DNA of 32,000 nucleotides from assembly GCA_900234795.1 (NCBI GenBank), contig LT962688.1, positions 600,001-632,000 on the forward strand, written 5' to 3'. This document shows positions 7,143 through 25,658 of this stretch, piece by piece. Position numbers and translations under genes: made by a program. How positions within the stretch are numbered: position 1 is the first letter of the stretch; the number at the start of each line of letters is the position of its first letter. The notes below the pieces were generated by a model that saw only the letters and a program-made list of their open reading frames with translations, had not been told where the DNA came from and searched no databases. The stretch comes from Methylorubrum extorquens. Lineage in GTDB: Bacteria; Pseudomonadota; Alphaproteobacteria; Rhizobiales; Beijerinckiaceae.

Positions 7143-8972
7143 TCAAAGCCGAAGCTCGCCCCCGGCGATCTCCGCGTGCATCGCTGCATCGATCCGGCGG
7201 TAGGCGCCGTCGCGGTCGATGTAGAGCGGGTCGTCGGTCCGGTCGGGGTCGAAGCCGTCCTCGGCCAGGGCGACCTTCTTCTGCTTGAACGTCTCGGTAT
7301 GGCCGAGTTCGTCGCTCAGGCGCAGGAACAGCGGCCGGGCATAGGCCGGAAGCCGGGTCTCCATCTCGGCGTGCAGGTGCGCGAGGTCGAAATCCGGCCC
7401 GACCGCGAGCGCCGCCATGCCGGCCCTTCCCTCCGCCCCCGGCACGGACACGCCGTAGACGTTGGCCTCGCGCACGCCCGCGACGCGGTGGAGCGCCTCG
7501 GCGACCTCGGTGGTCGCCACGTTCTCGCCCTTCCAGCGGAAAGTGTCGCCGATCCGATCGACGAAAGTGAAGTAGCCCTGCGCGTCCCGGCGCATCAGGT
7601 CGCCGGTGCGCATCCAGGCATCATTGGGTTCAATCACGTCGCGCAGCACCTTGCGCGCACTCTCGGCGGCGCTGGTATAGCCCTCGAACGTGTATTCCGC
7701 CCGCTCCGAGAGCCGGCCGAGCAATTCGCCGGCCTCGCCGAACTCGGCCGGGATGCAGCGCCCCCGCGCATCGCGCGCCGGCAGGCCCGTGGTGACGTCG
7801 TGGCGGACGATCAGGGCCGGCGAGCGCCGGGCCATGAACGAGGGCACGCGCCCCACCGCGCCGACCCGGCCCTCGACGTTGTAGAGCGAGAGCGTGCCCT
7901 CGGTCGCGGCGTAGAATTCGAGGATGCGGGGGATCGCGAAGCGCGCCTGGAACGCCTCCCAGACCTCCGCGCGCATGCCGTTGCCGGTGCAGAGCCGCAG
8001 GCGGTGCCGACCCTCGGCGGGGTCGGGGGCGGCAAGCGTGAGATAGCGGCACAGCTCACCGATATACTGGAACAAGGTCGCCCCGCTCTCGGCCACGTCG
8101 GCCCAGAACCGGCTGGCGGAAAATTTCTCGCGGATCACCACCGAGCCGCCGCCGAGCAGCACCGAGCCCGGCGCCACCACGCCGCCGACGCTGTGGTAGA
8201 GCGGCAGGCAATCGTACATGCGGTCGTCGGGCGTCGGGTCGATCAGGCCGGCGAACCAATGGGTCCACATCATCACCCGGTGGTGGCTCACCCGCGCGGC
8301 TTTGGGCAGGCCGGTGGTGCCGGAGGTGTAGATCAGCAGCGCGGGATCGCGCAGCGTGACGGGCGGCGCCTCGTCGAGCCCGAGCGGAGCCTCGCGAAAC
8401 CCCGCCGAGGCCGCGGCGAGCGTGTCGTTTGTGTCCGGCCCCTGCCACACGATCTCCGGCTGCTCGGCGAGATGGGGCAGAGCTCCCTCAAGCACGTCGG
8501 CGAGGTCGGCGGCGGCGATGACGAGGCGAGGGGCGGCGACCGCAAGGCAATGGGCGAGGCCGGCGCCGCGCAGGTGGGTGTTGAGCAGCGCCACGCAGAC
8601 GCCGACGCGGGTGAGCCCGAGCCAGATCGCGAGATAATCCGGGCAGTTCCGCATCAGGAGGGCGACGGTGTCGCCCTTGGCGAGCCCGCGCGCCAGCGCC
8701 CAGCGGGCGTAGCGGTTGCGGCGCGCGGCGAGTTCCCGATGGCTCAGGGTTTCGTCCCGGCCGATCAGGGCCGGCGCGTGGGCGCGCTCTACGGCGACGG
8801 CGTCCAGCACGAGGGGGAAGATGCGCTCCGGGCTCGCGTCAATCCGCGCCGTGCGGGCCAGGGCCCCGAGCCAGCCGGCGGTGGAGGAGGGCCGGGGCGG
8901 CGGGGCCGCGCTGTCTCGATCCGGGCGTCCCCCGAGCGGATCGGGGGAGGCTGCGGCGAAAGTCTGGTCCAT
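7143..8972 (-). CDS. FATP-type long-chain/very-long-chain acyl-CoA synthetase (adenylate-forming)
   Basis: Motifs YTSGTTGLPKAARVSHHR, YAATEG and TGDLMRRDAQGYFTFVDRIGDTFRWKGENVATTEV. Start taken at MDQTFAA (8972), 12 nt after the metA stop. Confidence 0.8.
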   Translation of the reverse strand: MDQTFAAASPDPLGGRPDRDSAAPPPRPSSTAGWLGALARTARIDASPERIFPLVLDAVAVERAHAPALIGRDETLSHRELAARRNRYARWALARGLAKGDTVALLMRNCPDYLAIWLGLTRVGVCVALLNTHLRGAGLAHCLAVAAPRLVIAAADLADVLEGALPHLAEQPEIVWQGPDTNDTLAAASAGFREAPLGLDEAPPVTLRDPALLIYTSGTTGLPKAARVSHHRVMMWTHWFAGLIDPTPDDRMYDCLPLYHSVGGVVAPGSVLLGGGSVVIREKFSASRFWADVAESGATLFQYIGELCRYLTLAAPDPAEGRHRLRLCTGNGMRAEVWEAFQARFAIPRILEFYAATEGTLSLYNVEGRVGAVGRVPSFMARRSPALIVRHDVTTGLPARDARGRCIPAEFGEAGELLGRLSERAEYTFEGYTSAAESARKVLRDVIEPNDAWMRTGDLMRRDAQGYFTFVDRIGDTFRWKGENVATTEVAEALHRVAGVREANVYGVSVPGAEGRAGMAALAVGPDFDLAHLHAEMETRLPAYARPLFLRLSDELGHTETFKQKKVALAEDGFDPDRTDDPLYIDRDGAYRRIDAAMHAEIAGGELRL

Positions 8973-8983
8973 CTCGGGCGCTC

Positions 8984-9980
8984 TCACGCGGCGAGCGCGA
9001 CGCGGTCCGAGACCAGCGCGAGCCAGTTGCGGAACAGCCCGGCGGCGGCCTCCTGCCAAGCGGCCGGACGGGGCAGGGTCTCGGCCATCGTCGGGAAGTC
9101 GGCGTGCAGGGCGGGCGAGCGATAGGCCCGTGCCACCGCGGCGAAGGCGTCGAGACGCCGGACGGCCTCGTCGACGTAGTAGTTCTCGGGCAGCGCGGGC
9201 GGGGTGTCCCGCTCGCCATCGAGGAAGCGGCCGATATCCCGGCGGTACTCGCGGGCGAGCGTATCGCCGTCATATTCCGGGTGGCCCTGGAGGAAGACCA
9301 TCAAGGCACCGCGCTCGCGGACGAACAGATCGACCCCGACCTGTTCGGAGCGCCGCAGGACACGGTAGCCGCGGGCGGTCAGCGCCTGTTCGGGCAGGTC
9401 GTTCCAGCGCGAATGCGGCACCGGCACGTTCGCCGGCATCCCCGCGAGCAACGGATGGTGGGCGACCGCCGTGCAGGCATAGATGCCGGAATGCTTGGTC
9501 GGCAGCGGCTGACGCTCGATGCCATCGAGGTGCAGCACGGCCGCATGCGCGGCCAGACACGAGAACAGGGTCGGGACGCCGCTCGCATCCGCCCAATCCA
9601 CCACCGCCGCGAGCGCCGGGAAGAATGGCTCGTCGGCAAGACCCTTGGCCTTCGGCTCGGCGCCGGTGACGACGAGGGCATCGAGCCCGGCTCCAGCCAG
9701 CGCGCCTTGCGTCTCGTAGAAGCGTTCGAGATGGGCGCGGGCGAGGGGGACCGCGCGGGACCGTATCGAGGCTGAACAGGCGCAGCTCGACGCCTGGGCC
9801 GATCAGGCGCCGGAACTGGCGCTCCGTCTGCACCAGGGCGCTGTCGGGCATGTTGTTGAGGAGGCCGACGCGAAGCTTTGGCTGCGCCGGCTCGTGCCAC
9901 GCGACGCCGCCGACTGCGCCGAGATCCAACTCCGCCGCGGGCAGGCTCACGGGTTGGATCGAGGTGCCGTAGTCCAGCAT
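8984..9980 (-). pseudogene. metA: Homoserine O-acyltransferase MetA, reading frame broken by a 1-nt shift near 9745-9765
   Basis: The N-terminal part is in the frame of ORF 9270..9980 (MLDYGT...KLRVGLLNNMPDSAL...LRLFSLDTVPR). The remainder is in the frame of ORF 8984..9604, which I extended upstream by hand (...LARAHLERFYETQGALAGAGLDALVVTGAEPKAKGL...HSRWNDL...QGHPEYD). The RBS GGAGGAG lies 7 nt before the ATG at 9980. Confidence 0.8.
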
Positions 9981-10013
9981 GGCGGGTCTCCTCCGGACGC
10001 GATGGGGAAGGGT

Positions 10014-11307
<1,294 letters not shown>

Positions 11308-11620
11308 GTCTTGAAGCTGTCCCGAAACCGCGGAGTTAAGGTCTTGAGCGCAAGGCTTGGACCAGACTTGGCCGTACCGGAACGGGATGACAGCTTGCGA
11401 GACTTGCTGAACGCGAAACTTCGACAAGTCTTGATCGATGACTTCGATGATGGGGAAATCGCCCGGCAGACGTCGGCTCCGGCCGCACGGCTCCGTCTTT
11501 CCGGCCTAATCTCTGTTGCCCGGCCGCTGTCTCGAAACGGGGCAGGCGTGCCAAATCGGACCTAGTCTTGATACGGCGCAAGATCGGCTGAAATTCCACA
11601 GTCTTCGCCGGCCCTCGCGT
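11308..11620 (-). promoter_or_regulatory. Long structured 5' leader/promoter region of metY, with a repeated GTCTTGA heptamer and competing helices that cover the translation start region
   Basis: GTCTTGA occurs at 11308, 11341, 11428 and 11565, and GACTTG at 11365 and 11401. mRNA segment 11396->11383 (AAGCUGUCAUCCCG) can pair with 11324->11314 (CGGGACAGCUU), which ends 6 nt before the AUG. An alternative helix is CGCAAG (11399->11394) with CUUGCG (11354->11349). Confidence 0.35.
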
Positions 11621-12257: not shown

Positions 12258-12367
12258 ACGCCGGCGGTCGCCTCCGCGGCCTTGGCTTTCGTTCCGCTCT
12301 GTCTTCGGAAGGACGGTTCGTCCTCCCGAACCCGCTCCACGGGGCGCTCTTCGCGCCCGGCTGGCGG
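12258..12367 (+). repeat. Intergenic structured repeat, copy A (conserved flanks around a variable central hairpin)
   Basis: 12258-12290 matches 18124-18156 at 31/33 positions. 12331-12367 matches 18187-18223 at 34/37. The centre at 12304-12330 forms ttcggaaggacg-gtt-cgtcctcccgaa. A conserved hairpin gggcgc-tcttc-gcgccc lies in the 3' block. Confidence 0.8.
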
Positions 12368-12422
12368 TGCCATCGCTGTTCGAGCGATGGCCTGTTCAGC
12401 ACATCCCGGAGGCTCGGCCGCG

Positions 12423-13304
12423 ATGACGACGCCCGATCACGACACCTCGCCCCCCGACACCTGGACCTTCTTCGAGGGCGCGTGGCATCCCGGCAATGTC
12501 CGGATCATGGGGCCACGCACCCACGGCGCGTGGCTCGGCTCGACGGTGTTCGACGGCGCCCGCGCCTTTGAGGGCGTCACGCCCGATCTCGATCTGCACC
12601 TCGCCCGGGTCAACCGCTCGGCCACCGCCCTCGGGCTCACGCCGAAGGTCGCGGTCGAGGAATGGGCCCGCCTCGTCGCCGAAGGGCTGACGCGCTTTGC
12701 GCCCGACGCCGAACTCTACATCCGGCCGATGTACTGGGCCGAGAGCGGGTTTGCCGGCGGCGTGCGCTTCGATCCCGCCTCCACCAACTGGTGCCTGTCG
12801 CTCTACACGGCACCGATGCCGCTGCCGTCGGGCGTCAAGGCGACGCTCTCGCCCTTCCGCCGCCCGTCGATCGAGGTCGCCCCCGTCGATGCCAAGGCCG
12901 GATGCCTTTACCCCAACGGGGCGCGGGCGCTGACAGAGGCGCTGTCGCGCGGCTTCGGCAATTGCCTGATGCTCGACGGGCTCGGCAACATCGCCGAGTT
13001 CGCCAACGCCAATGCGTTCTTCGCGCGGGACGGGGTGGTCTACACCCCGGTCCCGAACGGGACGTTCCTCGCGGGCATCACCCGCGCCCGCGTCCTCGCG
13101 CTGTTGCGCGGGGCCGGTGTCACGGTGGTGGAAAAGACCCTGCGCTACGAGGACTTCCTGAGCGCCGACGAGGTCTTCACCGCCGGCAACTTCGCCAAGG
13201 TCGCCCCGGTCACCGGGCTCGATGACATACGCTTCGAGCCGGGACCGATGTTTCGCCTCGCACGCCAGCTTTACTGGGATTTCGCGCACGGACGGCTGTC
13301 GTAG
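12423..13304 (+). CDS. Class-IV (branched-chain or D-amino-acid) aminotransferase
   Basis: 293 aa from ATG 12423 (MTTPDHD...). Blocks GAWLGSTVFDGARAF, ELYIRPMYWAE and EFANANAFFARDGVVYTP are typical of fold-type IV PLP aminotransferases. Confidence 0.8.
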   Translation: MTTPDHDTSPPDTWTFFEGAWHPGNVRIMGPRTHGAWLGSTVFDGARAFEGVTPDLDLHLARVNRSATALGLTPKVAVEEWARLVAEGLTRFAPDAELYIRPMYWAESGFAGGVRFDPASTNWCLSLYTAPMPLPSGVKATLSPFRRPSIEVAPVDAKAGCLYPNGARALTEALSRGFGNCLMLDGLGNIAEFANANAFFARDGVVYTPVPNGTFLAGITRARVLALLRGAGVTVVEKTLRYEDFLSADEVFTAGNFAKVAPVTGLDDIRFEPGPMFRLARQLYWDFAHGRLS

Positions 13305-13802: not shown

Positions 13803-15506
13803 TCAATCGCCCGCCAGCGCCTTCTCGCGGATCGCCGTGAGGCTCAGGCCCGGCGTGATCGCATCGACCGAGAACTTCACGTGGATGATCGCCGGGCGCT
13901 GCGCCGCCAGGGCCTCCTCCAACGCCGCCGGAAAATCCTCGGTCCGCTCCACGGTGAAGCCGACGCCGCCGAAGGCGCGGGCATAGGCGGCAAAGTCCGG
14001 GTTTACGAGGTCGGTGGCGAGGACGCGACCCGGAAAATCGCGCTCCTGATGCATGCGGATCGTGCCGTAGCTCGCATTGTCGGCGACGATGCAGACGATG
14101 TTCAGGCCGTACTGCACCGCGGTCGCGAATTCCTGGCCGTTCATCAGGAAGTCGCCGTCACCGTTGATTGAGATCACGGTGCGTTCGGGAAAGATCCGCT
14201 TCATCGCCACAGCCGCCGGGACGCCGTAGCCCATCGAGCCGGAGGTCGGCGCCATGTGGGTGGCAAGGCGGCGGAAGCGGTAGAAGCGGTGGATCCAAGC
14301 GGCGTAGTTGCCCGCGCCGTTGCACAGGATCGCGTCCTCCGGCAGCGCCTCGCGCAGATGCACCATCACCTGCCCGAGATTGACCGGGCCGGGCTGCGGC
14401 GTCGGGGTCTGCGACCACGCCAGATATGCGTCATGGGCCGCGCGGGTCTCGGCCGCCCACGGGACGGAAGCGGGCGCATCGAGCCGCGCCAGAGCCGCCG
14501 CCATCCGGGCCGGCGCGGCGGTGATGCCGAGATGCGGAACGTAGACCCGGCCGAGTTCCTCCGCTCCGGGATGAATATGGACGAGGCGGGTGCGGGGGGC
14601 CGGGATGTCGAGGAGCGAATAGGTCTGGCTCGCGACCTCGCCGAGGCGGCCGCCGAGCACGATCATCAGGTCGGCGGACTTGGCCCGCGCCACCAGCTTC
14701 GGGTTGGCGGCAAGCCCGAGATCGCCCGCGTAGTTCGGATGCAGCGGGTCGAACAGCGGCAGGCGGCGGTAGCTCGTGGCCACCGGCAGATCGAAGGCTT
14801 CAGCAAAGCGGCGGATATCGGCATAGGCCTGCTCGGTCCAGCGGCTGCCGCCGAGCACCAGGAAAGGGCTTTTGGCCTCCGCCAGCAGGGCGGCGAGGGA
14901 CGCGAGATCCTCCGCGCCGGGCGCGGCCTCGACGGCTTGGAAGGGCGGGGCCAGCAGCCCTTCCGCGGCATCCTTCAGCATGTCCTTCGGCAGCGCCACC
15001 ACCACCGGACCCGGCCGGCCGCCGGTGGCGGTGTGGAAGGCGCGCGAGACGTATTCCGGCATCCGCGCGCCGGTCTCGATCTCGGTGGCCCATTTCGCGA
15101 TCGGCCCGAAGGCGGCGCGGTAATCGACCTCCTGCCACGCCTCGCGGTCGCGCAGACCCCGCTCGATCTGGCCGACGAACAGGATCATCGGCGTCGAATC
15201 CTGCTGGGCGATGTGGATGCCGGCCGAGGCGTTGGTGGCGCCGGGACCGCGGGTGACGAAGCAGATGCCGGGTTGCCCCGTCGCCTTGCCGTGGGCTTCC
15301 GCCATCATCGCCGCGCCACCCTCCTGGCGGCAGACGGTGAGGGCGATGCCCGATTCGTAGAGCGCATCGAGCACCGGCAGGTAGCTCTCGCCCGGCACTG
15401 CGAAGACATGGGTGACGCCGTTGGCCGCGAGTTGGTCCACGAGCGCCTGGGCGGCGTTCCGCCCGCGGCTTCGGGCGGGGAGGGCGGCGTCTGGGCTCTG
15501 GGACAT
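13803..15506 (-). CDS. Thiamine-diphosphate-dependent enzyme of the acetolactate synthase large-subunit family (substrate unknown)
   Basis: Start at MSQSPDAALP (ATG 15506). N-terminal VTHVFAVPGESYLPVLDAL. ThDP motif GSMGYGVPAAVA...INGDGDFLMNGQE...VADNASYG. The 243-codon upstream extension in the ORF track has no family features and runs antisense into the flavin reductase gene. Confidence 0.8.
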   Translation of the reverse strand: MSQSPDAALPARSRGRNAAQALVDQLAANGVTHVFAVPGESYLPVLDALYESGIALTVCRQEGGAAMMAEAHGKATGQPGICFVTRGPGATNASAGIHIAQQDSTPMILFVGQIERGLRDREAWQEVDYRAAFGPIAKWATEIETGARMPEYVSRAFHTATGGRPGPVVVALPKDMLKDAAEGLLAPPFQAVEAAPGAEDLASLAALLAEAKSPFLVLGGSRWTEQAYADIRRFAEAFDLPVATSYRRLPLFDPLHPNYAGDLGLAANPKLVARAKSADLMIVLGGRLGEVASQTYSLLDIPAPRTRLVHIHPGAEELGRVYVPHLGITAAPARMAAALARLDAPASVPWAAETRAAHDAYLAWSQTPTPQPGPVNLGQVMVHLREALPEDAILCNGAGNYAAWIHRFYRFRRLATHMAPTSGSMGYGVPAAVAMKRIFPERTVISINGDGDFLMNGQEFATAVQYGLNIVCIVADNASYGTIRMHQERDFPGRVLATDLVNPDFAAYARAFGGVGFTVERTEDFPAALEEALAAQRPAIIHVKFSVDAITPGLSLTAIREKALAGD

Positions 15507-15578
15507 CGCTTCGATCTCGCTTGACGGCAGGACGCGTCCCGGTTCGGGACCATCCCTCGGCACATCCTGCGGTTCGTA

Positions 15579-15599
15579 CCGGAACTGAACAGTTTCCGG
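15579..15599. promoter_or_regulatory. Near-perfect palindrome in the divergent promoter region (candidate operator)
   Basis: ccggaactg-aa-cagtttccgg lies between the divergent ThDP-enzyme and flavin-reductase genes. Confidence 0.25.
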
Positions 15600-15803
15600 C
15601 CCGTCCAGCCGGGCCCTGGACTTGCACAGACGAGCCGCAAGGACAGGCAACGTCATAGAGATGAACCGATAACGTCCGGTTTCGACCGGTGCGGAACGGG
15701 CAGGTTTCTCAAGGTCCCATTTCACATCGACGAACGGATTGCGAACCATGCTTGCGCACCGGAGATCATCGACACCGGGCACCTCGGCCGGCTCGTTCGG
15801 CGG

Positions 15804-16391
15804 ATGGGGGGCGTGATGGCCGCCGCCGCGCTGGCGCCGGAGCCAGCCATCGACGGGGAGCTCCTCAAGCAGGCGATGCGCCGCCTCGTCGGCGGGGTCG
15901 TCGTGATCACCGCCGGAACCGGCGAGGACCGGGTCGGGCTCACCGCGACCTCGGCCGTCTCCCTCTCCGTCGATCCGCCGACCATGCTGGTCTGCGTCAA
16001 CCGCGCCTCCTCGACCTGGCCGGTCATCGCCCGGCGGCGGCATTTCTGCGTCAGCATCCTCGGGGCCGGGCAGCAGGCGACCGCCGAGCGCTTTGCCGGC
16101 ATCGGCGGGCTGCGGGGCGCCGCCCGCTATCGCGGCGCGGATTGGACGATCATGGAATCGGGCGCCTCCGGTCTCACCGAGGCGCAGGCCATCGTCGATT
16201 GCGCGCTGGAAGAGGTCATCGAGCGGCACAGCCACGCCATCCTCCTCGGCGCGGTGCGGGCAGTGCGTCTGAACCGGATCGAGCGGCCCTCCCTGGCCTA
16301 TGGCGGCGGGCGCTTCATCGGGATCTCACCGCATGAGGCGGCACGCGGCACCGGCCGCATTCACAGTGCCGCTGACAACAAGACAGATTAA
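15804..16391 (+). CDS. Flavin reductase (FMN-binding split-barrel, HpaC/NtaB-like)
   Basis: LVGGVVVITAGTGEDRVGLTATSAVSLSVDPPTMLVCV is the characteristic Flavin_Reduct core. The start is ATG 15804 or 15816. Confidence 0.8.
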   Translation: MGGVMAAAALAPEPAIDGELLKQAMRRLVGGVVVITAGTGEDRVGLTATSAVSLSVDPPTMLVCVNRASSTWPVIARRRHFCVSILGAGQQATAERFAGIGGLRGAARYRGADWTIMESGASGLTEAQAIVDCALEEVIERHSHAILLGAVRAVRLNRIERPSLAYGGGRFIGISPHEAARGTGRIHSAADNKTD

Positions 16392-16524
16392 CCAGCAACA
16401 CACTTAACATCGATAAATGCTTTTTCGGCACAATCAGCAAGAGTATTGATAAAACTCAGGCTGTATTGAAATCGAAGCGGCCACAGATCAATCCAGTCGG
16501 CACAGGCCAAAGGGAAAAAGGACA
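16392..16524 (+). promoter_or_regulatory. AT-rich island (about 44% G+C by hand count) upstream of the carrier-protein cassette, with a direct repeat GTATTGA spaced 20 bp apart
   Basis: GTATTGA occurs at 16443-16449 and 16463-16469. AGGA lies 4 nt before the ATG at 16525. I could not place a convincing -35/-10 pair. Confidence 0.4.
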
Positions 16525-16794
16525 ATGTCGCAAGCGGTGGCAGCCAGCGTCGCGGATCGCACCATGGGCCTCGCCTACGCGATCGCCGCGCGCCACACGA
16601 TCAAGCCGAAATTCGATCAAGCGGACGCCCTGGTCGATGTCGGGCTCTCGTCGCTCGATCTCGTCAACCTGATGGTCGCGGTCGAGGCGGAGTTCGACAT
16701 CATGATCCCGCCCGCGAGCCTGACGCCGAAGAACTTCTACTCGATCGAGACCATCGCCCGGATGGTCGAGAGCGTGCGCGGCCCGAACGCCTGA
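16525..16794 (+). CDS. Carrier protein 1 (phosphopantetheine-binding, ACP/PCP-like)
   Basis: 89 aa. DVGLSSLDLVNLMVAVEAEF matches the carrier-protein helix-II attachment motif, with Ser in LSSLD. Confidence 0.8.
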   Translation: MSQAVAASVADRTMGLAYAIAARHTIKPKFDQADALVDVGLSSLDLVNLMVAVEAEFDIMIPPASLTPKNFYSIETIARMVESVRGPNA

Positions 16795-16889
16795 GCGGCC
16801 AAGTCCGGATCGCCCAGACTGCGCCGCCCCTCACGAACATCCCTGACGTGCCGCCGGCCCGGCCGGCTTCAGTCCAACGGAGCCCAGCC

Positions 16890-18092
16890 ATGACGATGCA
16901 GCCCACGACCCGGCCGGACGGTTACGTCGGCGATGCCGCCGACCTTTTGACCCGCGCGGCGGCCGCCGCCGCGATCGCCGCCACCCATGCGGACGCGGTG
17001 GACCGCGACGGGCGCTTCCCCGAGGAAGCCGTCGCCGCCTTCCGCTCGCAGCGCCTGCTCGGTGCGGCCGTGCCGATCGAACTCGGCGGGGAGGGCGCCT
17101 CGGTCCGGATGCTGGCCGAAATCTGCTACGTGCTGGGCCGCGCCTGCGCCTCCTCGGCGATGATCTTCGCCATGCACCAGACCAAGGTGGCCTGCCTGAT
17201 CCGGCATGGCCGCGGCGAGCCCTGGCAGGACGGCCTCTTGCGCCGCATCGCCGGCGAACAGCTCCTGATGGCGTCCTCGACGACCGAGGGCCAGGGCGGC
17301 GGCAATGTCCGCTCCTCCTCCGCGGCGATCGAGGCCGACGGCGATGCAGTCACCCTGGAGCGGGCCGCGACCGTAATTTCCTACGGCGCCCAGGCCGACG
17401 GCGTCGTCACCGTCGCCCGCCGCTCGGCCGAGGCCGGCCCCTCCGACCAAGTGCTCTGCGTCTTCCTGCGTGAGGACTACACCCTGGAGCGCCTGAGCGG
17501 CTGGGAAACGCTCGGCATGCGCGGCACCTGCAGCAGCGGCTTCCGACTCGTCGCCCGCGGCCGCCCCGAGCAGGTGCTCGCCGCCCGCTACAGCGACCTC
17601 CACAACCGGACCATGACGCCGGTCTCGCACATCCTCTGGTCGAGCGCCTGGACCGGCATCGCCGCCTCCGCCGTCGATCGCGCCCAGGCCTTCACCCGCA
17701 CGGCGATGCGCGGCGCGGGCGGCGTCGCCCCGCCCGGCGCGCTGCACTACGCGCGCGCCGTCTCCAGCCTGAAGCAGGCCCGCGCCCTCGTCACGCAGGC
17801 GCTCGACACCTTCGAGGGAGCCGAGGGCGACCCGGCGGCTTTGGCCGGCCTCGACGTGCAGACCGCGCTGACGATGCTGAAGGTCGAAGTCTCCGAACTC
17901 GCCGTCGCCACCGTGTCGAGCGCGCTGCGCGCCAATGGGCTCGCCGGCTACCGCCAGGACGGCGCGTTCAGCATCGGCCGGGCGCTGCGCGACATCCTCT
18001 CGGCACCGATCATGATCCACAACGACCGGATCCTGGCCAACCTCGCCACCGCGACGCTGATGTCGCCGGTCGCCGCCTCGCTCAGCGCCTGA
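16890..18092 (+). CDS. Acyl-CoA dehydrogenase-fold flavoenzyme lacking the MCAD-type catalytic Glu
   Basis: ATG 16890 is preceded by GGAG. The ~400-aa ACAD architecture includes ASSTTEGQGGGNVRSS, which is like the (S/T)E..GSD segment. The C-terminal RALRDILSAPIMIHNDRILANLA aligns to R-D-x(6)-I-Y-E-G-T, with E replaced by I/H. Confidence 0.75.
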   Translation: MTMQPTTRPDGYVGDAADLLTRAAAAAAIAATHADAVDRDGRFPEEAVAAFRSQRLLGAAVPIELGGEGASVRMLAEICYVLGRACASSAMIFAMHQTKVACLIRHGRGEPWQDGLLRRIAGEQLLMASSTTEGQGGGNVRSSSAAIEADGDAVTLERAATVISYGAQADGVVTVARRSAEAGPSDQVLCVFLREDYTLERLSGWETLGMRGTCSSGFRLVARGRPEQVLAARYSDLHNRTMTPVSHILWSSAWTGIAASAVDRAQAFTRTAMRGAGGVAPPGALHYARAVSSLKQARALVTQALDTFEGAEGDPAALAGLDVQTALTMLKVEVSELAVATVSSALRANGLAGYRQDGAFSIGRALRDILSAPIMIHNDRILANLATATLMSPVAASLSA

Positions 18093-18123
18093 AGGCGCTC
18101 GGCGACGTTCGTTCCTGCCTCGA

Positions 18124-18223
18124 ACGCCGGCGGTCGCCTCCGCGACCTTGGCTCTCGCTACGCTCGACGCCTCGGCTTGGCCGAGGCCCGCTCCGCGGGG
18201 CGCTCTTCGCGCCCGACAGGCGG
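18124..18223 (+). repeat. Intergenic structured repeat, copy B (inside the carrier-protein cassette)
   Basis: Same conserved flanks as 12258-12367. The central hairpin here is gcctcggc-ttg-gccgaggc (18169-18187), which differs in sequence from copy A but sits in the same position. Confidence 0.8.
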
Positions 18224-18265
18224 AGCACAGGCTCCACTGCCCCCTTTGCCGAAGGACTGCCCGCC

Positions 18266-19198
18266 ATGAACATGTCCGTGATGAACGCGCCGGCCTCGCC
18301 GACCGCGACCGACCCGCTCGACGCCCTGTTCGATGCGATGTTCAAGCCGATGAACGCGCAGGGCGTCTACGCCCGCACCGGCGCCTACGAGTCGGTGGTG
18401 GAGGCGCTGGCCGCCTTCATCTCGGCGCGGCGCGAGGCCGAGACGGAGGTGTTCCGCTTCCCGCCGGTGATGAGCCGGGCGCATCTGGAGCGGCACGGCT
18501 ACCTCAAGAGCTTCCCGAACCTCCTCGGCTGCGTCTCCTGCCTGGAAGGCACCGAGACGGAGATCCGCGCCTCGGCCGACAAGCATCTGGAGGGCGGCGA
18601 CTGGACCGCGGACCTCGAGACCGCCGACCTCGTGCTGACCCCGGCTGCCTGCTACCCGGTCTACCCGATCGCCGCCGCCCGCGGAGCGGTGCCGGCCACC
18701 GGCTACTGCTTCGATGTCGCCTGCGACTGCTTCCGCCGTGAGCCCTCGCGCCATCTCGACCGGCTGCAATCCTTCCGGATGCGCGAATACGTCCGCATCG
18801 GCACGCCGGAGCAGATCGTCGCCTTCCGCGAGAGCTGGATCGAGACCGCCACCGCGATGGCCGACGAACTCGGGCTGCCCTACACGGTCGAGACCGCGAG
18901 CGACCCGTTCTTCGGCCGGCTCGGCCAGATCATGGCCTTCAGCCAGCTCGAACAGGCCTTGAAGTTCGAGCTGCTGATCCCGCTCCGGGGGGCGGCCGCC
19001 GGCACCGCCTGCATGAGCTTCAACTATCACCGCGAGCATTTCGGCACGACCTGGGGCCTCAACCTGGAGGATGGCGAGCCCGCCCATACCGGTTGCGTCG
19101 CCTTCGGCATGGACCGCCTCGCGGTGGCCCTGTTCGCCACCCACGGCGAGCGCATCGACGCGTGGCCGGCCCCGGTCCGCGCGGCGCTGAAGCTCTGA
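18266..19198 (+). CDS. Amino acid--[acyl-carrier-protein] ligase. This is a truncated class-II, SerRS-like aaRS catalytic core without a tRNA-binding domain.
   Basis: 310 aa. Blocks FPPVMSRAHLERHGYLKSFPNLLGCV and TPAACYPVYP. Motif-2-like DCFRREPSRHLDRLQSFRMREY. ASDPFFGR and CMSFNYHREHFGTTWG. Motif-3-like HTGCVAFGMDRLAVALF. There is no N-terminal coiled-coil or anticodon domain. Confidence 0.85.
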   Translation: MNMSVMNAPASPTATDPLDALFDAMFKPMNAQGVYARTGAYESVVEALAAFISARREAETEVFRFPPVMSRAHLERHGYLKSFPNLLGCVSCLEGTETEIRASADKHLEGGDWTADLETADLVLTPAACYPVYPIAAARGAVPATGYCFDVACDCFRREPSRHLDRLQSFRMREYVRIGTPEQIVAFRESWIETATAMADELGLPYTVETASDPFFGRLGQIMAFSQLEQALKFELLIPLRGAAAGTACMSFNYHREHFGTTWGLNLEDGEPAHTGCVAFGMDRLAVALFATHGERIDAWPAPVRAALKL

Positions 19199-19215
19199 CG
19201 TCAAAGCGCCGTCAG

Positions 19216-20133
19216 ATGCCGCTCGATCCGCATGTCAGCCGCTTCCTCGACATGATGGCGCTCGGAAGCTCGGACGGCATCACCCTCGACGCCCGCCGGG
19301 AGGGGATGCGCGGGCTCGCGCGCCTCGCCGGGCTGACCGCCGAGGGCGTCGCGACCCGTGACCTCGTCCTGCCGGGCCCGGCCGGGCCGATTTCCGCGCG
19401 GCTCTACGCGCCCGAGGGCAGCGCGAGCGGCCCCGGCCTCGTCTACCTGCATGGCGGCGGCCTCGTGACCGGCGGCCTCGACACCCATGACGGACTCTGC
19501 CGGGTGCTGGCCGAGGCCGGCGCCCTGCGCATCGTCTCGGTCGATTACCGGCTCGCGCCCGAACACCCGTTCCCGGCCGCCCTCGACGACGCGCTGGCGG
19601 CGATGGACGGGGTCGCCGCGCAGGCGGACACGCTCGGGATCGATCCGGCCCGGCTCGGGATCGGCGGCGATTCCGCCGGGGCCGGGCTCGCGGCACGGGT
19701 CTGCCAGGAACGGCGCGGCGGCCCGATCCGGGCGCAGCTCCTGATCTGCCCCGTGCTCGACGTCCACGGCAGCTACCCCTCGCGCCGCGATTTCGCTCAA
19801 GGATACTTCCTCGACGAGGCGACGATCCGGCGCGACCTTGCGGCCTGCGGCCCCGAGGCCGCCGGCCCGTCGCCCCGTCTCTCGCCCCTGCGCGAGGCGG
19901 ATCTTACCGGCCTGCCCCCGGCCCGCATCCACACGGCGGAGTACGATCCCGTCCGCGACGAGGGGGCGGCCTATGCCGCGCGTCTGGAGCGGGCGGGCGT
20001 CGAGACCGCCCACACCGTTCACGCCGGCATGATCCACTTCTTCTACGGCCTCGGGCGGCTGGTGCCGCGCGGCCGGCCGATCCTGTCCGAGATCGCCCGC
20101 GACTTCGGCGCCTGCCTCCGCGGCGCCTCCTAA
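19216..20133 (+). CDS. Alpha/beta-hydrolase, hormone-sensitive-lipase family (family IV esterase)
   Basis: Oxyanion motif YLHGGGLVTGG, nucleophile elbow GGDSAGAGL, then DPVRDEG and HAGMIHFF for Asp/His. ATG 19216 lies 17 nt after the ligase stop. Confidence 0.8.
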   Translation: MPLDPHVSRFLDMMALGSSDGITLDARREGMRGLARLAGLTAEGVATRDLVLPGPAGPISARLYAPEGSASGPGLVYLHGGGLVTGGLDTHDGLCRVLAEAGALRIVSVDYRLAPEHPFPAALDDALAAMDGVAAQADTLGIDPARLGIGGDSAGAGLAARVCQERRGGPIRAQLLICPVLDVHGSYPSRRDFAQGYFLDEATIRRDLAACGPEAAGPSPRLSPLREADLTGLPPARIHTAEYDPVRDEGAAYAARLERAGVETAHTVHAGMIHFFYGLGRLVPRGRPILSEIARDFGACLRGAS

Positions 20134-20183
20134 CCCCACCCCTTGTCCACCCCTTGCCCAACCCAGCCTTGAGGAGAGCCACC

Positions 20184-20441
20184 ATGTCCCTGCGTGAGAC
20201 CGTCTTCGCCGAGATCGCCGCCATCGCCGCCGAGCAGGAAAAGGCGATGCCGCCGATCACCGACGACCTCGTGATGCTCGACACCGAGTTCGACTCGCTC
20301 TGCTTCGCGCTCCTCGTCGCGCGGATGGAGGATCTCACCGGCGCCGACCCGTTCGGCGAGATGGATGCCTCCGACCTGCCGGTGACGGTCGGCGACCTCG
20401 TCGCCCTCTACGACCGCGCCGCGGCCCGGCAGGCGGCCTGA
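20184..20441 (+). CDS. Carrier protein 2 (ACP/PCP-like)
   Basis: 85 aa from ATG 20184, with RBS GAGGAG upstream. LDTEFDSLCFALLVARME contains the DSL phosphopantetheine attachment motif. Confidence 0.8.
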   Translation: MSLRETVFAEIAAIAAEQEKAMPPITDDLVMLDTEFDSLCFALLVARMEDLTGADPFGEMDASDLPVTVGDLVALYDRAAARQAA

Positions 20442-20446
20442 CCCCG

Positions 20447-21808
20447 ATGATCCTGCGCGAGAGGCTTCTGGCGGCGGGCGGACTCGAGGGCCTGTTCCTG
20501 TCCGACCACCGCAGCAAACAAGATCTCGCCGGGATCGTCTCCGGCGAGCGCGACGCCGCCGCGACCGCGGCGCTCGCCGGCCGCCGGGTGCTGCTCGCGG
20601 TCGGCGGGCAGATGGCGGCGGCCCGCGCCATGATCGCGCTCGACGGCCTCGCGGCCCGGCTCGCCCTCGTCCCCCCGAAGCTCGCGCCGGAGCACATCGC
20701 CCGGATCGCATTGGATTCCGAGGCGGAGATCTGCGTCACCGATGCCGAGGGGCTGCCCCCCGACGCGCTGCCGGGCCTGCCCCGGATCGACGCGGCCGAC
20801 GCGTTCCGCGCGGGCTCCGAGACAGTGCGGGAGACGGAATGGGCACTGGCCACCTCCGGCACCACCGGCGCGCCGAAGCTCGTCGCCCACACCCTCGAAG
20901 GCCTCGCCGGCGGCATCAACACCGCCGCGGCGCCGGAGCCCGGCACGGTGTGGAGCACCTTCTACGACATCCGCCGCTACGGCGGGCTCCAAGTATTCCT
21001 GCGGGCGATGCTCGGGCCGTCCTCGCTCGTGCTCTCCGACGCGGGCGAGCCGGTGCGCGACTATCTCATCCGCGTCGGCGCGGCGGGCGTCACCCACATC
21101 CTCGGCACGCCCTCGCACTGGCGCCTCGCCCTGATGAGCGCGGCGCTCGACCGGCTGAGCCCCCGCTACGTGCGGCTCTCGGGCGAGATCGCCGACCAGA
21201 ACATCCTCGACGCCCTGCGCGACGCCTTCCCTGACGCGCGCATCGCCCACGCCTACGCCTCGACCGAGGGCGGGGTCGGCTTCACCGTCGAGGACGGGCA
21301 GGAGGGTTTCCCGGCCGCGCTGATCGGCACCCGCGCCGGGATCGAGATCACCGTGCGCGAGGACAGCCTGTTCGTGCGCTCCGGCCGCACCGGGCGTCGC
21401 TATCTCGGCGCGGCGCCCGAGGCGCTGATCGCCGCGGACGGCTTCATCGACACCGGCGACCTCGTGGAGCGACGGGGCGAGCGCTACCACTTCCTCGGCC
21501 GGCGCAGCGGCGTGATCAATGTCGGCGGCGCCAAGGTGCAGCCGGAGGAGGTCGAGACCGTCATCAACGTCTTCCCCGGCGTCTCGATGTCCCGCGTGCG
21601 CGCCCGGCCCAACCCGATCCTCGGCGCGGTGGTCGAGGCGGAGGTGGTGTTGCGCGCCGATGCGGGCACGGATCAGGCGGTGCTGAAGAAAGCGATCATC
21701 GCCCACTGCCGCCCGCGCCTGGCCGGACACAAGGTGCCGGCGAGCGTGAAATTCGTGGATGCGCTGCCGATCACGTCGGGCGGCAAGCTGGTGCGGAGGG
21801 GCGCGTGA
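20447..21808 (+). CDS. Adenylate-forming acyl/aryl ligase (ANL superfamily). Likely loads carrier protein 2.
   Basis: Motifs ATSGTTGAPKLVAHT, YASTEGG, GDLVERRGERYHFLGRRSGVINVGGAKV and PITSGGKLVRR. Starts 5 nt after the carrier protein 2 stop. Confidence 0.8.
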   Translation: MILRERLLAAGGLEGLFLSDHRSKQDLAGIVSGERDAAATAALAGRRVLLAVGGQMAAARAMIALDGLAARLALVPPKLAPEHIARIALDSEAEICVTDAEGLPPDALPGLPRIDAADAFRAGSETVRETEWALATSGTTGAPKLVAHTLEGLAGGINTAAAPEPGTVWSTFYDIRRYGGLQVFLRAMLGPSSLVLSDAGEPVRDYLIRVGAAGVTHILGTPSHWRLALMSAALDRLSPRYVRLSGEIADQNILDALRDAFPDARIAHAYASTEGGVGFTVEDGQEGFPAALIGTRAGIEITVREDSLFVRSGRTGRRYLGAAPEALIAADGFIDTGDLVERRGERYHFLGRRSGVINVGGAKVQPEEVETVINVFPGVSMSRVRARPNPILGAVVEAEVVLRADAGTDQAVLKKAIIAHCRPRLAGHKVPASVKFVDALPITSGGKLVRRGA

Positions 21809-22548
21809 GCGACGATCTCGAGACCGGACGCCTCGTCGTCGTCACGGGCGCGAGCCGCGGGCTCGGCCTCGCCATGGCCGAAACCCTTGCCGCCGACGGG
21901 TTTCGCGTGGTGGCGCTCGCCCGGCGACCGAGCGAGGCGCTGGAGGCGGCGCAAGTGGCTGCTCCCGGCCGGATCGCTTTCATGGCCGCGGATCTCGGCG
22001 AGATCGACGCGCTCCAGGCTCTCGCCCAGAGAATCCGGGCCGAGCACGGGCCGGTCTACGGCCTCGTCAACAACGCTGCGCTCGGCACGCCCGGCCTGCT
22101 CACGACGATGCCGGCAAGCAAGATCGCCGAACTCGTCCACCTCAACACCCTCGCGCCGATGGTGCTGACCAAGTATCTCGCCCGCGGGATGATGACGGCC
22201 GGCGCCGGCCGCATCGTCAATGTTAGCTCGATCATCGCCTTCACCGGCTACAACGCCCTGTCGGTCTACGCCGCGACCAAGGCCTCGATGATCGGCTTCA
22301 CCAAGTCGCTCGCCCGCGAGGTCGGGCGGCTGGGGGTAACGGTGAACGCGGTGGCGCCCGGCTTCATCGAGACGGCGATGACCGGCGAGATGGACGAGGC
22401 GGAGCGCGGGCGCGTGGCCAACCGCAGCGCCCTCAAGCGGCTGGCCGAGCCGCAGGACGTGGCCGACGCCGTCGCCTACCTGATGTCGGACCGCGCCCGT
22501 AACGTCACCGGCACCGTTCTGACCATCGACGCCGGCAGCACCGCCTGA
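21805..22548 (+). CDS. Short-chain dehydrogenase/reductase (FabG-like)
   Basis: Motifs VVVTGASRGLGLA, NNAA and YAATKAS. The GTG start overlaps the ligase stop as GTGA, and GGAGGGG lies upstream. Confidence 0.85.
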   Translation: MSDDLETGRLVVVTGASRGLGLAMAETLAADGFRVVALARRPSEALEAAQVAAPGRIAFMAADLGEIDALQALAQRIRAEHGPVYGLVNNAALGTPGLLTTMPASKIAELVHLNTLAPMVLTKYLARGMMTAGAGRIVNVSSIIAFTGYNALSVYAATKASMIGFTKSLAREVGRLGVTVNAVAPGFIETAMTGEMDEAERGRVANRSALKRLAEPQDVADAVAYLMSDRARNVTGTVLTIDAGSTA

Positions 22549-22569
22549 AGCCGGCCAGCAACCTTGAGC

Positions 22570-22720
22570 CATGACTTCACTCGATAGGAATGTGCGCGAG
22601 ATCAATAAATTTCGGTTGGTCTGGGCGAAAAATCAACGTCTATACTAATTCAACCAACAAGACCGGCAGTCCCGAAACGGCATCGGCCGGCTGGCATTGA
22701 TTTCGCTCTGTTTCGAGCGC
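22570..22720. promoter_or_regulatory. AT-rich island (about 40% G+C over 22581-22660 by hand count) separating the cassette from the GNAT/polysaccharide genes. Weak sigma70-like TTGGTC-N19-TATACT.
   Basis: The composition drop was read directly. TTGGTC is at 22616-22621 and TATACT at 22641-22646. The 19-nt spacer is long, so the promoter call is weak. Confidence 0.3.
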
Positions 22721-22823
22721 GTCTCCGAGCGGGACGAGAGCGCGCCTTGCTCACGGTTCGATCGCGCGGAGCCGTGGAACGAAATGGGTGCCGGACAGCG
22801 CGACGAGCCGGAGGGGGCCGCCG

Positions 22824-23768
22824 ATGATTGGGGTGAGCGAGACCGTGGAAGACGTCCCACCCGCGGGGGAGGGCGTCCGCAGCGCGCGGGTCAAGGTCCG
22901 CTGCCGCACCATCGAGGAGGATGACCTCGCCTCCGTGGTACGGCTGTTACAGGTCGGCTTCCCCGATCGCTCCGAACCCTATTGGCGGACCGGGCTCGAC
23001 CGGCACCGCACCCAGCCGCTGCCCGACGACGTGCCGCGCTACGGCTATGTGCTGGAACGGGACGGGGCCATTGTCGGCGTCCTGCTCGCACTCTACCGCA
23101 TGGTGACGGACGAGGCCGGCACGCATCTGCGCTGCAACCTTTCGAGCTGGTACGTTCTGCCGGAATTCCGCGCGCTGGGCACCCTGCTCGACGGCTTCGC
23201 CATGCGCGACCGGCGGGTGACCTACACCAACGTCTCGCCCGCTCCGCAGACGTGGCAGATTCATAAAGCGCGCGGCTTCAAGCCGGTCTGCTCGGGCCAG
23301 ATGCTCGTCATGCCGCTGCTCGCCGACCTCGGCCGGGGGCGCCGCGTCCGCGTGGCCACGCCGGAGACCCTACGCCTGCTGCCGGAGCCGGAGGCCCGGC
23401 TGGTGGCCGACCACCTCGCCTATGGCTGCATCGGCCTCGTCTGTTCGGATGGGGAGAAGGCGTGGGCCGTCCTGTTCCAGCGGCGCGCCATCAAGCTGCG
23501 GCCGGGGGAAACCCGGTGGCCGCGCCTGCCCTGCCTTCAGCTCGTCTACCGCTCGACCGCGCTCGACCTGTCCGCCTTCCTCGGCGCGATCGGCCGGCAT
23601 CTCATGCTGCACCACGCCATGCCGTGGTTCGTGCTCGATGCCGTGGGCAAGCTGCCGGGCTTTGCCGGACACTTCTTCGAGGGCCGCGCCCCGAAATACG
23701 CCCGCGGCCCGAACCCGCCGGCCACCGGAGACCTCACCTATACCGAGGTCGTCCTGTTCGGTGCCTAA
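22824..23768 (+). CDS. GNAT-fold acyltransferase-like protein with a C-terminal second lobe (314 aa)
   Basis: ATG 22824 is preceded by GGAGGGGG. The N-terminal lobe reads IEEDDLASVVRLLQVGF...YGYVLERDGAIVGVLLALY...SSWYVLPEFRALG, which looks like GNAT beta4-alpha3. The C-terminal ~150 aa has no motif I can name. Confidence 0.55.
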   Translation: MIGVSETVEDVPPAGEGVRSARVKVRCRTIEEDDLASVVRLLQVGFPDRSEPYWRTGLDRHRTQPLPDDVPRYGYVLERDGAIVGVLLALYRMVTDEAGTHLRCNLSSWYVLPEFRALGTLLDGFAMRDRRVTYTNVSPAPQTWQIHKARGFKPVCSGQMLVMPLLADLGRGRRVRVATPETLRLLPEPEARLVADHLAYGCIGLVCSDGEKAWAVLFQRRAIKLRPGETRWPRLPCLQLVYRSTALDLSAFLGAIGRHLMLHHAMPWFVLDAVGKLPGFAGHFFEGRAPKYARGPNPPATGDLTYTEVVLFGA

Positions 23769-24109
23769 GGGCGCTTTCCGCCGAAGCGGCACCGTTCCGG
23801 ATCGGGAAACGCATCGAAACAGGGATCGACGCGGTTTCCCGCCGATGTCGTCGCGCGCCTCCACGCGGCGATCCGCCGAGAGCAGCAGCTTCTAGCGCTC
23901 AGCGTAAACCGACCGTCCGATCAAGCCGCCGCGAGATCGATCCGGCGCCGTTCCGAGTGGTCACGAAGTCGCGCGCACGCCTCACAGCCTGAAAGACGCC
24001 ATAAACCAAGACTCCACGGAGTGTTGGCCCGCACGGGATCGACGGGGCACGAGTTCGGCTTTCCCGACACCCGGACCAGACCGAGACGACGTTCCATGGA
24101 AGTGCCGGA

Positions 24110-25480: not shown

Positions 25481-25658
25481 TGCGCATCCTGGCGCACATC
25501 TTGAAGTGTGAGACCCAAACGACCTTCGGCCCGCGGCCGCTGTCCCGAAACGAGAAGGATCGTCCCCGGACGACCCACTCGGGGACGGAAATGGCGGACC
25601 GGATCGGTTGCTGCGGGCTGACGAGGCCCGCAGGCGCGTATTGTTCGAGAGTTTCGCG

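Follow-up and report, generated by a model that had tools for sequence, protein, structure and literature searches.

The 32,000-nucleotide stretch of Methylorubrum extorquens DNA analysed here (contig LT962688.1, positions 600,001 to 632,000; hereafter the window) carries a gene for a flavoenzyme of the acyl-CoA dehydrogenase (ACAD) fold between the genes for a small carrier protein and an amino acid:[carrier protein] ligase. A preliminary description of the window had taken the interval 16525-18092 for a single ACAD-fold gene, but this start was wrong and drew in a carrier protein gene: the interval holds two separate genes in different frames, encoding the carrier protein CP1 (16525..16794, + strand) and the ACAD-fold enzyme (16890..18092, + strand; 400 amino acids), the latter recognised from Pfam matches, an AlphaFold2 (AF2) model and the starts of its homologues. 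A gap of 95 bp separates the two open reading frames (ORFs). The ACAD-fold gene is placed at 16890-18092 because the ATG at 16890 (MTMQ...) is preceded by GGAG 7 nt upstream and is the start used by the homologue P0001 (400 amino acids, 99% identical, 100% coverage) and, at the equivalent position, by nearly all other listed homologues; the mechanical ORF begins at GTG 16848. The C-terminal segment quoted earlier for this enzyme, RALRDILSAPIMIHNDRILANLA, lies at residues 364-386 of the protein, and the placement of the enzyme between a carrier protein and an aminoacyl ligase was correct, with CP1 upstream (16525-16794) and the ligase downstream (18266-19198).

The window has a G+C content of ~70%, and the proteins it encodes match those of Methylobacterium and Methylorubrum most closely. 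At such high G+C, long ORFs that are spurious, either antisense or overlapping, are common, including a 383-amino-acid ORF antisense to the ACAD-fold gene and an 810-amino-acid ORF (13803-16235, - strand) that extends the gene of a thiamine diphosphate (ThDP)-dependent enzyme across a flavin reductase gene, so mechanical ORF lists in the window need filtering by codon-position G+C. Scanning 15500-24200 for promoters and terminators brought up nothing that exceeded shuffle expectation.

An ACAD-fold partner of an amino acid:carrier protein ligase

The proteins on either side of the ACAD-fold enzyme are readily assigned. CP1 is an aminoacyl carrier protein of 89 amino acids with a G-L-S-S-L-D phosphopantetheine site; it matches PF00550 (E 2.8e-6) and the B. 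japonicum 'aminoacyl carrier protein 1' (PDB 4h2s_C; 2.6e-16). The downstream gene (18266..19198, + strand) encodes an amino acid:[carrier protein] ligase, a truncated class II homologue of seryl-tRNA synthetase (SerRS) and an orthologue of Bll0957, which scores 474 bits against NF005479 (cut-off 357) and 452 bits against Bll0957 itself (PDB 3mey), so the aminoacyl ligase reported earlier as a neighbour is real. A ligase above its cut-off, a homologous carrier protein and an adjacent ACAD-fold gene are thus all present in the window, as expected of an amino acid:carrier protein ligase module.

Structural work on ligases of this kind, which resemble aminoacyl-tRNA synthetases (aaRSs), appeared in 2010-2013 and presented them as linking ribosomal with non-ribosomal peptide synthesis. 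The system is said to have been characterised by Mocibob et al. in 2010 and 2013, the earlier work reportedly giving glycine as the substrate of Bll0957 itself. In the Bll0957/Bsr0959 system of Bradyrhizobium (PDB 3mey, 4h2s), to whose components the window ligase and CP1 are orthologous, studies have been confined to the ligase and the carrier protein, and the ACAD-fold partner is undescribed in the literature searched. Bll0957-type ligases aminoacylate the phosphopantetheine of carrier proteins with glycine or alanine (PMC5370406), and the amino acid loaded in the window is probably glycine, judging by orthology. In B. diazoefficiens, bll0957 is adjoined by bll0958 ('acd', acyl-CoA dehydrogenase), and each is up 3.0-fold in a phaR mutant (PMC10888616). 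Since the ligase beside it matches Bll0957 and bll0958 adjoins bll0957, the ACAD-fold protein of the window is the orthologue of bll0958. Our literature search, which did not cover the 2010 PNAS paper, found no functional work on bll0958 or Atu2572 and no newer biology of the ligases, and a 2022 review still describes the biological role of carrier protein aminoacylation by aaRS-like ligases as unknown.

The association of the three genes is strongly conserved. A tblastn scan of one genome per species gave at least 587 stretches matching the ACAD-fold enzyme, mostly from Hyphomicrobiales, with some from Caulobacter, Acidobacteriaceae, and metagenome-assembled genomes (MAGs) of Burkholderiales and Gammaproteobacteria. 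Neighbours were counted in the best 80 of these species-level loci with 10-kb flanks, and all coding-like ORFs from the window and the 80 loci were additionally clustered (counts out of 81). In 77/80 loci the ACAD-fold gene is immediately followed by the ligase gene, and in 77/80 it is adjacent to CP1; ORF clustering recovered the ACAD-fold enzyme in 78, the ligase in 70 and CP1 in at least 55 of the 81. In most loci CP1 is divergently transcribed from a position ~550-750 bp upstream of the ACAD-fold gene, so that CP1 of the window is inverted relative to most relatives. Co-directional copies occur only upstream of the ACAD-fold gene in the window and its closest relative (L001) and downstream of the ligase in another locus (L074), which for the window and L001 implies a local inversion in that lineage.

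The carrier protein connection extends beyond the ligase module. The wider ACAD-fold family comprises 486 cluster representatives (50% identity) at E <= 1e-30, and six more distant members, 35-47% identical, have informative contigs. Two of them (L084 and L093) have a carrier protein immediately upstream of the ACAD-fold gene; another (L085) lies with an acyl carrier protein (ACP) and genes resembling β-ketoacyl-ACP synthase III (KAS III), beside an AurF / AMP-ligase / carrier-protein operon; a fourth (L092) adjoins a non-ribosomal peptide synthetase (NRPS) module of condensation, adenylation and peptidyl carrier protein (PCP) domains together with a phosphopantetheinyl transferase; and a fifth (L091) adjoins a PCP-thioesterase fusion. 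Only the sixth (L090) has no carrier protein in view. With five of the six beside a carrier protein or NRPS/PCP module, the wider family is carrier-protein-associated as a whole, and the earlier proposal that the enzyme belongs with a carrier protein and ligase rather than with fatty acyl-CoA agrees both with these contexts and with the synteny in 77/80 loci. The enzyme very probably acts on a substrate tethered to CP1 and, because no other gene is as tightly linked to the ligase and CP1, it is likely to be the natural next step of the pathway after them.

One of these distant loci has a character of its own. In L085 the 47%-identical member (P0123) is flanked by a KAS III-like gene on each side and follows closely on a gene for an AmcB-like ACP, and the adjoining operon encodes an AurF-type diiron N-oxygenase, a PhyH protein, a NUDIX protein, an AMP ligase and another carrier protein. 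By its gene content this locus looks like a different carrier-protein-dependent pathway.

Fold, enzyme class and the missing catalytic base

The ACAD fold claimed in the preliminary description is borne out by three approaches. Pfam detects the ACAD N-terminal domain (E 4.1e-11) and C-terminal domain (1.1e-4), with the middle domain (1.1e-3) under its cut-off; the AF2 model, built with 46 homologues, has a pLDDT of 84.9, a pTM of 0.88 and the expected helix / beta / helix layout; and a Foldseek search of the PDB returned 357 chains at E<=1e-3, with all 50 listed matches being ACAD-fold proteins. The TM values of 0.72-0.79 against ACADs place the protein in the three-domain ACAD fold.

The choice between an N-hydroxylase and a dehydrogenase, which that description had also raised, is one that sequence and fold do not make. 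The top Foldseek match is FMN-bound DszC (3.6e-16, TM 0.77), which favours an oxygenase, but 3pfd, Tfu_1647, short-chain acyl-CoA dehydrogenase, KijD3, nitrososynthases, TcsD and 3-sulfinopropionyl-CoA desulfinase are nearly tied with it. The best PDB match by sequence is Ch1CoA dehydrogenase (Ch1DH; 7p98, E 4.4e-18), and a family profile searched against the PDB finds KijD3 (2.7e-31) about as readily as the best true ACAD, again Ch1DH (6.3e-32), with DnmZ and ORF36 comparable. Among NCBIfam models none comes near its cut-off: the best score of the query is to the Rv1679/FadE16 family (76 bits against 600), and the curated oxygenase models SfnB (61 against 431), DszC (34 against 850) and HpaH-C2 (25 against 650) lie far below theirs. 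The PDB sequence search, Foldseek, the family profile, NCBIfam and Pfam were each tried as a means of calling oxygenase or dehydrogenase by similarity and gave no decision. Judged by sequence and model, the family stands about equidistant between true ACADs and the ACAD-fold oxygenases (DszC, KijD3 and the nitrososynthases). As regards tight FAD binding with adenosine contacts from the neighbouring subunit, the family keeps FMN-proximal motifs at T132-E133, S164 and N378, while the positions that would correspond to W166, S142, Q349 and G353 of medium-chain acyl-CoA dehydrogenase (MCAD) are V/T, G, variable and I/L/M, respectively, in the family alignment.

The canonical catalytic glutamate is absent. 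Base positions were mapped by reading alignments to Ch1DH residue by residue, in the query and in 119 family representatives (clusters at 50% identity, 35-55% identical to the query). In Ch1DH, T363 fills the space of the MCAD-type Glu and N241 that of the Glu used by isovaleryl- and long-chain acyl-CoA dehydrogenases (IVD/LCAD), and the base is D91, on a broken helix of the N-terminal domain (PMC9293079). The equivalent of T363 is I376 in the query, and Ile (79) or Val (32) in most representatives; I376 is also invariant in 46 close homologues, within the motif S-x-P-[ILV]-M-I-[HNS]-N-D-R-I. The Glu site had been given as 'Ile/His', of which Ile376 does occupy the MCAD-type position and His377 is only the next residue. 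At the IVD/LCAD-type site, N241 corresponds to S246 (S 82, A 23, T 5 in the representatives), so the alternative base that had been thought possible there is not found, the family having Ser, Ala or Thr and no conserved acid. The Ch1DH base D91 aligns with T98 or K99, depending on the alignment, and position 99 is Q in 97, K in 7 and M in 5 of the representatives. No acidic residue occurs at the MCAD-, IVD/LCAD- or Ch1DH-type position in any of the 119, and the earlier statement that the catalytic Glu is missing therefore holds for all three sites, in the query and across the family. Because there is no acid at any known base position, classical Glu-dependent abstraction of an α-proton with β-hydride transfer is unavailable to this enzyme. 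Read from its sequence, the protein lacks the base of a bona fide ACAD and is not one, in spite of the 'acyl-CoA dehydrogenase' label that databases give the family.

Several polar residues are conserved across the family and are candidates for catalytic or flavin-binding roles: H96 (98%), S164 (100%), Y165, D170, R177, R211, H247 (92%), Y354, R364, R367-D368, N378 (92%), D/E379 (77%) and R380. H247 takes the place of the Arg that comes directly after the IVD-type site in Ch1DH, and H96 is on the helix bearing the Ch1DH base. Ch1DH itself resembles the query in having non-acidic residues at both canonical Glu positions, but it has the relocated base Asp91 and acts on a CoA ester, whereas the query family has T/I-K/Q at that place and is linked to carrier proteins.

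Candidate chemistry on the loaded carrier protein

The reading that we favour, at a probability of roughly 0.4, is a carrier-protein-dependent ACAD-fold flavoenzyme that would form the oxygenase half of a group D-like system and act on aminoacyl-S-CP1. The Bll0957-type ligase would attach an amino acid (glycine, most probably) through a thioester bond to the phosphopantetheine of CP1; the ACAD-fold enzyme would dock the loaded CP1 and oxidise the tethered aminoacyl group; and a protein with a tandem-GNAT fold, together with other enzymes of the cluster, would process the product further. Reduced flavin would be supplied by the neighbouring PF01613 reductase, or by a housekeeping reductase where none is clustered, and a flavin hydroperoxide would oxygenate the substrate, most plausibly by N-hydroxylation of the α-amine. 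For the chemistry itself, reductase-dependent oxygenation is a tentative assignment. The preliminary description had allowed α,β-oxidation, C-N oxidation or N-hydroxylation of the aminoacyl group; since glycine has no β-carbon, α,β-dehydrogenation is chemically excluded if glycine is the amino acid loaded, and it is between the other two that sequence and fold do not choose.

A positional argument for an oxygenase is the NAD(P)H:flavin reductase gene (15804..16391, + strand; PF01613, E 5.7e-32). That a flavin reductase lies upstream was rightly noted before, but it is not a conserved neighbour: a first neighbour table gave 5/80 loci and a more sensitive search 7/80, a number that includes a 43-amino-acid remnant (L002) and a copy running into the end of its locus (L018), so that with the window the total is 8/81. 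This is a lower bound, as some loci end just past the gene for homoserine O-acyltransferase (HTS). The reductase occurs in at least four distinct arrangements, which supports an oxygenase: upstream of CP1 in the window and in L001; in L074, preceded by two GT2 glycosyltransferases and directly upstream of the ACAD-fold gene; in L019, L054 and L071, just downstream of the genes for HTS and a pyridoxal phosphate (PLP)-dependent enzyme; and after HTS in L018. L019, the sole locus read ORF by ORF, has the order PLP enzyme, HTS, reductase, an ORF x and AMP ligase, with the reductase ORF overlapping both its neighbours. No other candidate for an oxygenase component was seen within ~10 kb in the window or the reductase-bearing loci, and because the reductase recurs in such varied arrangements with no other candidate nearby, its presence in the cluster is accessory but non-random. 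A 43-amino-acid fragment at 9177-9305 of L002, beside CP1 in an Enterovirga MAG, is 70% identical to the window reductase and looks from its sequence like a decayed remnant.

Precedents for such a system exist, each with its own differences. Prolyl-S-PCP dehydrogenases (PltE, RedW and AnaB) follow the same logic of a stand-alone carrier, a dedicated loader and an ACAD-fold tailoring enzyme, but there proline is dehydrogenated between Cα and Cβ and the loader is an adenylation domain, whereas in the window it is an aaRS homologue. Those enzymes reportedly keep the catalytic Glu, as the AnaB structure paper is said to show. The similarity of the query to the prolyl-S-PCP dehydrogenase 4irn is marginal (E 4.8e-3), and the prolyl-PCP dehydrogenase models were missed (RedW NF045652, 25 bits against 650; PigA, 28 against 500), so that the analogy drawn earlier with PltL/PltF/PltE is good for pathway logic but not for family membership, which the low RedW score and the lack of the Glu contradict. 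Group D enzymes have the ACAD fold and include N-hydroxylases as well as members whose substrates are tethered to carrier proteins (PMC6165268). The query shares with this group (DszC/TdsC, the amino-sugar N-oxygenases KijD3/DnmZ/ORF36, and the isobutylamine N-hydroxylase VlmH with its reductase VlmR) the fold, the lack of the ACAD Glu and, in the window, a PF01613-type reductase; it differs in that the reductase is clustered in 8/81 loci only, that the C-terminal Pfam domain is type 1 rather than type 2, and that it retains ACAD-like flavin motifs absent from KijD3 in the profile alignment. A further parallel, by description only, is EpxF/EpnF, an ACAD-like decarboxylase-dehydrogenase-monooxygenase of epoxyketone biosynthesis that combines oxygenation and dehydrogenation (PMC11212132), although it acts on a β-keto acid after release from the assembly line. 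By analogy, then, the enzyme may resemble other tailoring enzymes that work on amino acids tethered to carrier proteins.

Other evidence weighs against an oxygenase, and much of it would suit a FAD-bound dehydrogenase or oxidase that acts on the Cα-N bond of the tethered amino acid, passing the Cα hydride to flavin N5 with no carboxylate base, in the manner of amino-acid and amine oxidases. The best sequence matches are genuine dehydrogenases (Ch1DH and butyryl-CoA dehydrogenase); the C-terminal domain is of the dehydrogenase type (PF00441) in 44/46 members and of the oxygenase type (PF08028) in 5/46, the query not among them; the flavin-proximal motifs are ACAD-like (S-x-T-x-E, I-S-Y-G-x-x-A-D and L-G-M-R-G-T); and 73/81 loci have no clustered reductase within 10 kb. 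Furthermore, the identity of the loaded amino acid comes from orthology (Gly or Ala for the ligase family), and our literature search found no biochemical data for any family member. Oxidation at Cα-N would give a 2-imino thioester and then glyoxylyl-S-CP, or pyruvoyl-S-CP if alanine is loaded; the missing acid base would fit direct hydride transfer from the amine-bearing carbon, and H247, at the place of the Arg after the IVD-type site, or H96, in the helix of the Ch1DH base, might assist as an alternative base. A ThDP enzyme (17/81) and a class IV aminotransferase (40/81), both of which handle 2-oxo acids, also occur in the cluster. Yet this chemistry would leave the recurrent reductase, in at least four independent arrangements, unexplained, and the cluster offers no electron acceptor, with no gene for an electron-transfer flavoprotein (ETF) seen around the ACAD-fold gene. 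To our knowledge, no characterised ACAD-fold enzyme oxidises an amine C-N bond on a thioester. On balance we regard Cα-N oxidation as rather unlikely.

The readings other than oxygenation and Cα-N oxidation are unlikely even when taken together. The substrate may be something other than free aminoacyl-S-CP1, either an intermediate further along the pathway, such as N-acyl-glycyl-S-CP1 formed from acyl-S-CP2 by the tandem-GNAT protein (CP2 being a putative second carrier protein), or an acyl chain borne on CP2, or a free amine, whose hydroxylamine would then receive the aminoacyl group of CP1, much as in valanimycin biosynthesis or with hydrazine synthetases. The tandem-GNAT protein (55-56 of ~80 loci) and the trio of CP2, an AMP ligase and a short-chain dehydrogenase/reductase (SDR; 44-46/80) are frequent partners, a cupin is present in 14/81 loci, and valanimycin biosynthesis offers a precedent in which a free amine is handled jointly by an ACAD-fold N-hydroxylase, a reductase and a SerRS. 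However, the ACAD-fold gene retains CP1 and the ligase in loci that lack CP2, the AMP ligase, the SDR and the GNAT protein within 10 kb, and distant relatives lie directly beside single carrier proteins, which makes another substrate quite improbable. Least probable is a non-redox ACAD-fold enzyme, with the flavin structural or carbanion-stabilising as in the cyclopropane-forming KtzA or 3-sulfinopropionyl-CoA (3SP-CoA) desulfinase, or an ordinary ACAD merely positioned by the ligase. A base-less ACAD-fold 3SP-CoA desulfinase does exist (PMC9293079; Foldseek match 5af7), and the database label would suit an ordinary ACAD, but glycyl-S-CP seems to offer no leaving group or obvious non-redox chemistry, and an ordinary ACAD is excluded by the family-wide lack of a base at three known positions and by a synteny that persists through many rearrangements.

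An aminomalonyl- or hydroxymalonyl-ACP route, with a ZmaI/FkbI-type ACAD and a 3-hydroxyacyl dehydrogenase, was also considered, because the ligase derives from SerRS and an SDR lies nearby. It was set aside: no FkbI-named entry is among the listed PDB matches (searched by name, not accession), the SDR goes together with CP2 and the AMP ligase rather than with CP1, and the orthologue family of the ligase loads Gly or Ala.

The purpose of the aminoacylated carrier protein has been an open question for about 15 years, and the ACAD-fold enzyme offers a defined, testable next step. Module proteins of the ligase and carrier protein type are already known to express and crystallise, so the question is directly testable. 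The fold and the logic of carrier-tethered tailoring are well known and the association is visible in public annotations, so the finding is better seen as an informative lead than as a system of a wholly new category.

The surrounding gene cluster

The neighbourhood analysis also exposes a large conserved gene cluster around the ligase/CP1/ACAD trio, a set of at least 12 genes that has been rearranged repeatedly among genomes, in both order and orientation. The run of window genes that begins with the flavin reductase and ends with the tandem-GNAT protein is entirely on the + strand, and the ThDP enzyme gene is divergent. In the B. japonicum-type order, CP1 is transcribed away from a co-directional series of the ACAD-fold enzyme, ligase, PLP enzyme, HTS, tandem-GNAT protein and aminotransferase; because the PLP enzyme and HTS follow the ligase and precede the GNAT gene, this pair lies inside the operon.

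Downstream of the ligase, the first gene encodes an alpha/beta hydrolase of the hormone-sensitive-lipase type (Abhydrolase_3 by Pfam; 19216..20133, + strand), found in 28 of the 80 loci and in 24 of the 81 by ORF clustering. The next ORF (20154..20441, + strand; 95 amino acids) is CP2, which has an F-D-S-L motif, a weak match to the mupirocin ACP MacpD (E 0.011) and no Pfam PP-binding match; it precedes the AMP ligase in 46/80 loci and, going by these sequence features, is probably a very divergent carrier protein. It is followed by an AMP-binding acyl ligase (20447..21808, + strand; Pfam and NCBIfam), which likely loads CP2, and by a FabG-like SDR (21805..22548, + strand; Pfam and NCBIfam). 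CP2 was counted in 46, the AMP ligase in 44 and the SDR in 44 of the 80 loci, with the AMP ligase in 46 and the SDR in 44 of the 81 by clustering.

The tandem-GNAT protein (22821..23768, + strand) is a conserved hypothetical protein matching neither Pfam nor NCBIfam and the fourth most conserved member of the module (56/80 loci; 55/81 by clustering). Its fold was recognised from a model with a pLDDT of 91.5 and resembles Eis and N-myristoyltransferase, which suggests a putative acyl or aminoacyl transferase. A relationship to the DUF1839 protein found near a distant family member was considered, and BLASTP showed no similarity.

Upstream of the reductase lie further members. The ThDP-dependent enzyme (13803..~15500, - strand), assigned by library match to the acetolactate-synthase-like PRK08199 family, was found in 16/80 loci and 17/81 by clustering, and the class IV aminotransferase (12282..13304, + strand), a conserved neighbour, in 40/81. 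A Cys/Met-metabolism PLP enzyme (~11334-10053) and then HTS (~9881-8993) occupy 8993..11334 on the - strand; their clusters include 50 and 36 of the 81 loci, respectively, and the pair travels with the cluster (36-50/81 loci). Both genes are frameshifted in the window relative to their intact L001 orthologues, with frame changes near 10146 and 9755, and represent either pseudogenes or assembly indel errors. A second AMP-binding enzyme of 638 amino acids (7143..9059, - strand) is again a conserved neighbour, its cluster (~620 amino acids) spanning 39/81 loci, and the cupin cluster spans 14/81. Genes for methylthioadenosine phosphorylase, methylthioribose-1-phosphate isomerase, pirin, a lactonase and RecQ were considered as pathway members and rejected as lineage-specific, each group occurring in only 11-14/81 loci; the methionine-salvage, pirin and RecQ neighbours were named from their translations, and the lactonase was checked by Pfam.

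Several of these genes would acquire a role if the enzyme is an amine N-oxygenase whose N-hydroxyglycyl-S-CP product the cluster then uses for an amino-acid metabolite with an N-O or N-N linkage, a specific extension that we consider improbable. HTS and a gamma-replacement PLP enzyme, with the tandem-GNAT protein and sometimes the cupin, could join the hydroxylamine oxygen to an activated homoserine, in parallel with the DcsE/DcsD logic of cycloserine biosynthesis. Alternatively, the glycyl unit could be transferred to a hydroxylamine and rearranged to give an N-N bond, as in valanimycin biosynthesis or by hydrazine synthetases. Either route, if true, would provide a biological role for the amino acid:carrier protein ligases and point to a metabolite that is widespread but unrecognised in Bradyrhizobium, Methylobacterium and related alphaproteobacteria of soil and plants.

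Polysaccharide genes flank the cluster in the window on both sides (3088-5451, - strand; 24110-25480; 25608-27782; 27779-29833; and 30903-32000, - strand). Their products are two Wzy_C O-antigen-ligase-like proteins (one carries a fused beta-helix domain), a chain-length regulator of the Wzz/GNVR type that also has an ATPase domain, a beta-helix protein and a GT4 glycosyltransferase. Glycosyltransferase genes also precede the reductase-ACAD operon of L074 and lie near the distant homologue in L090, and a link between the cluster and polysaccharide modification is possible.

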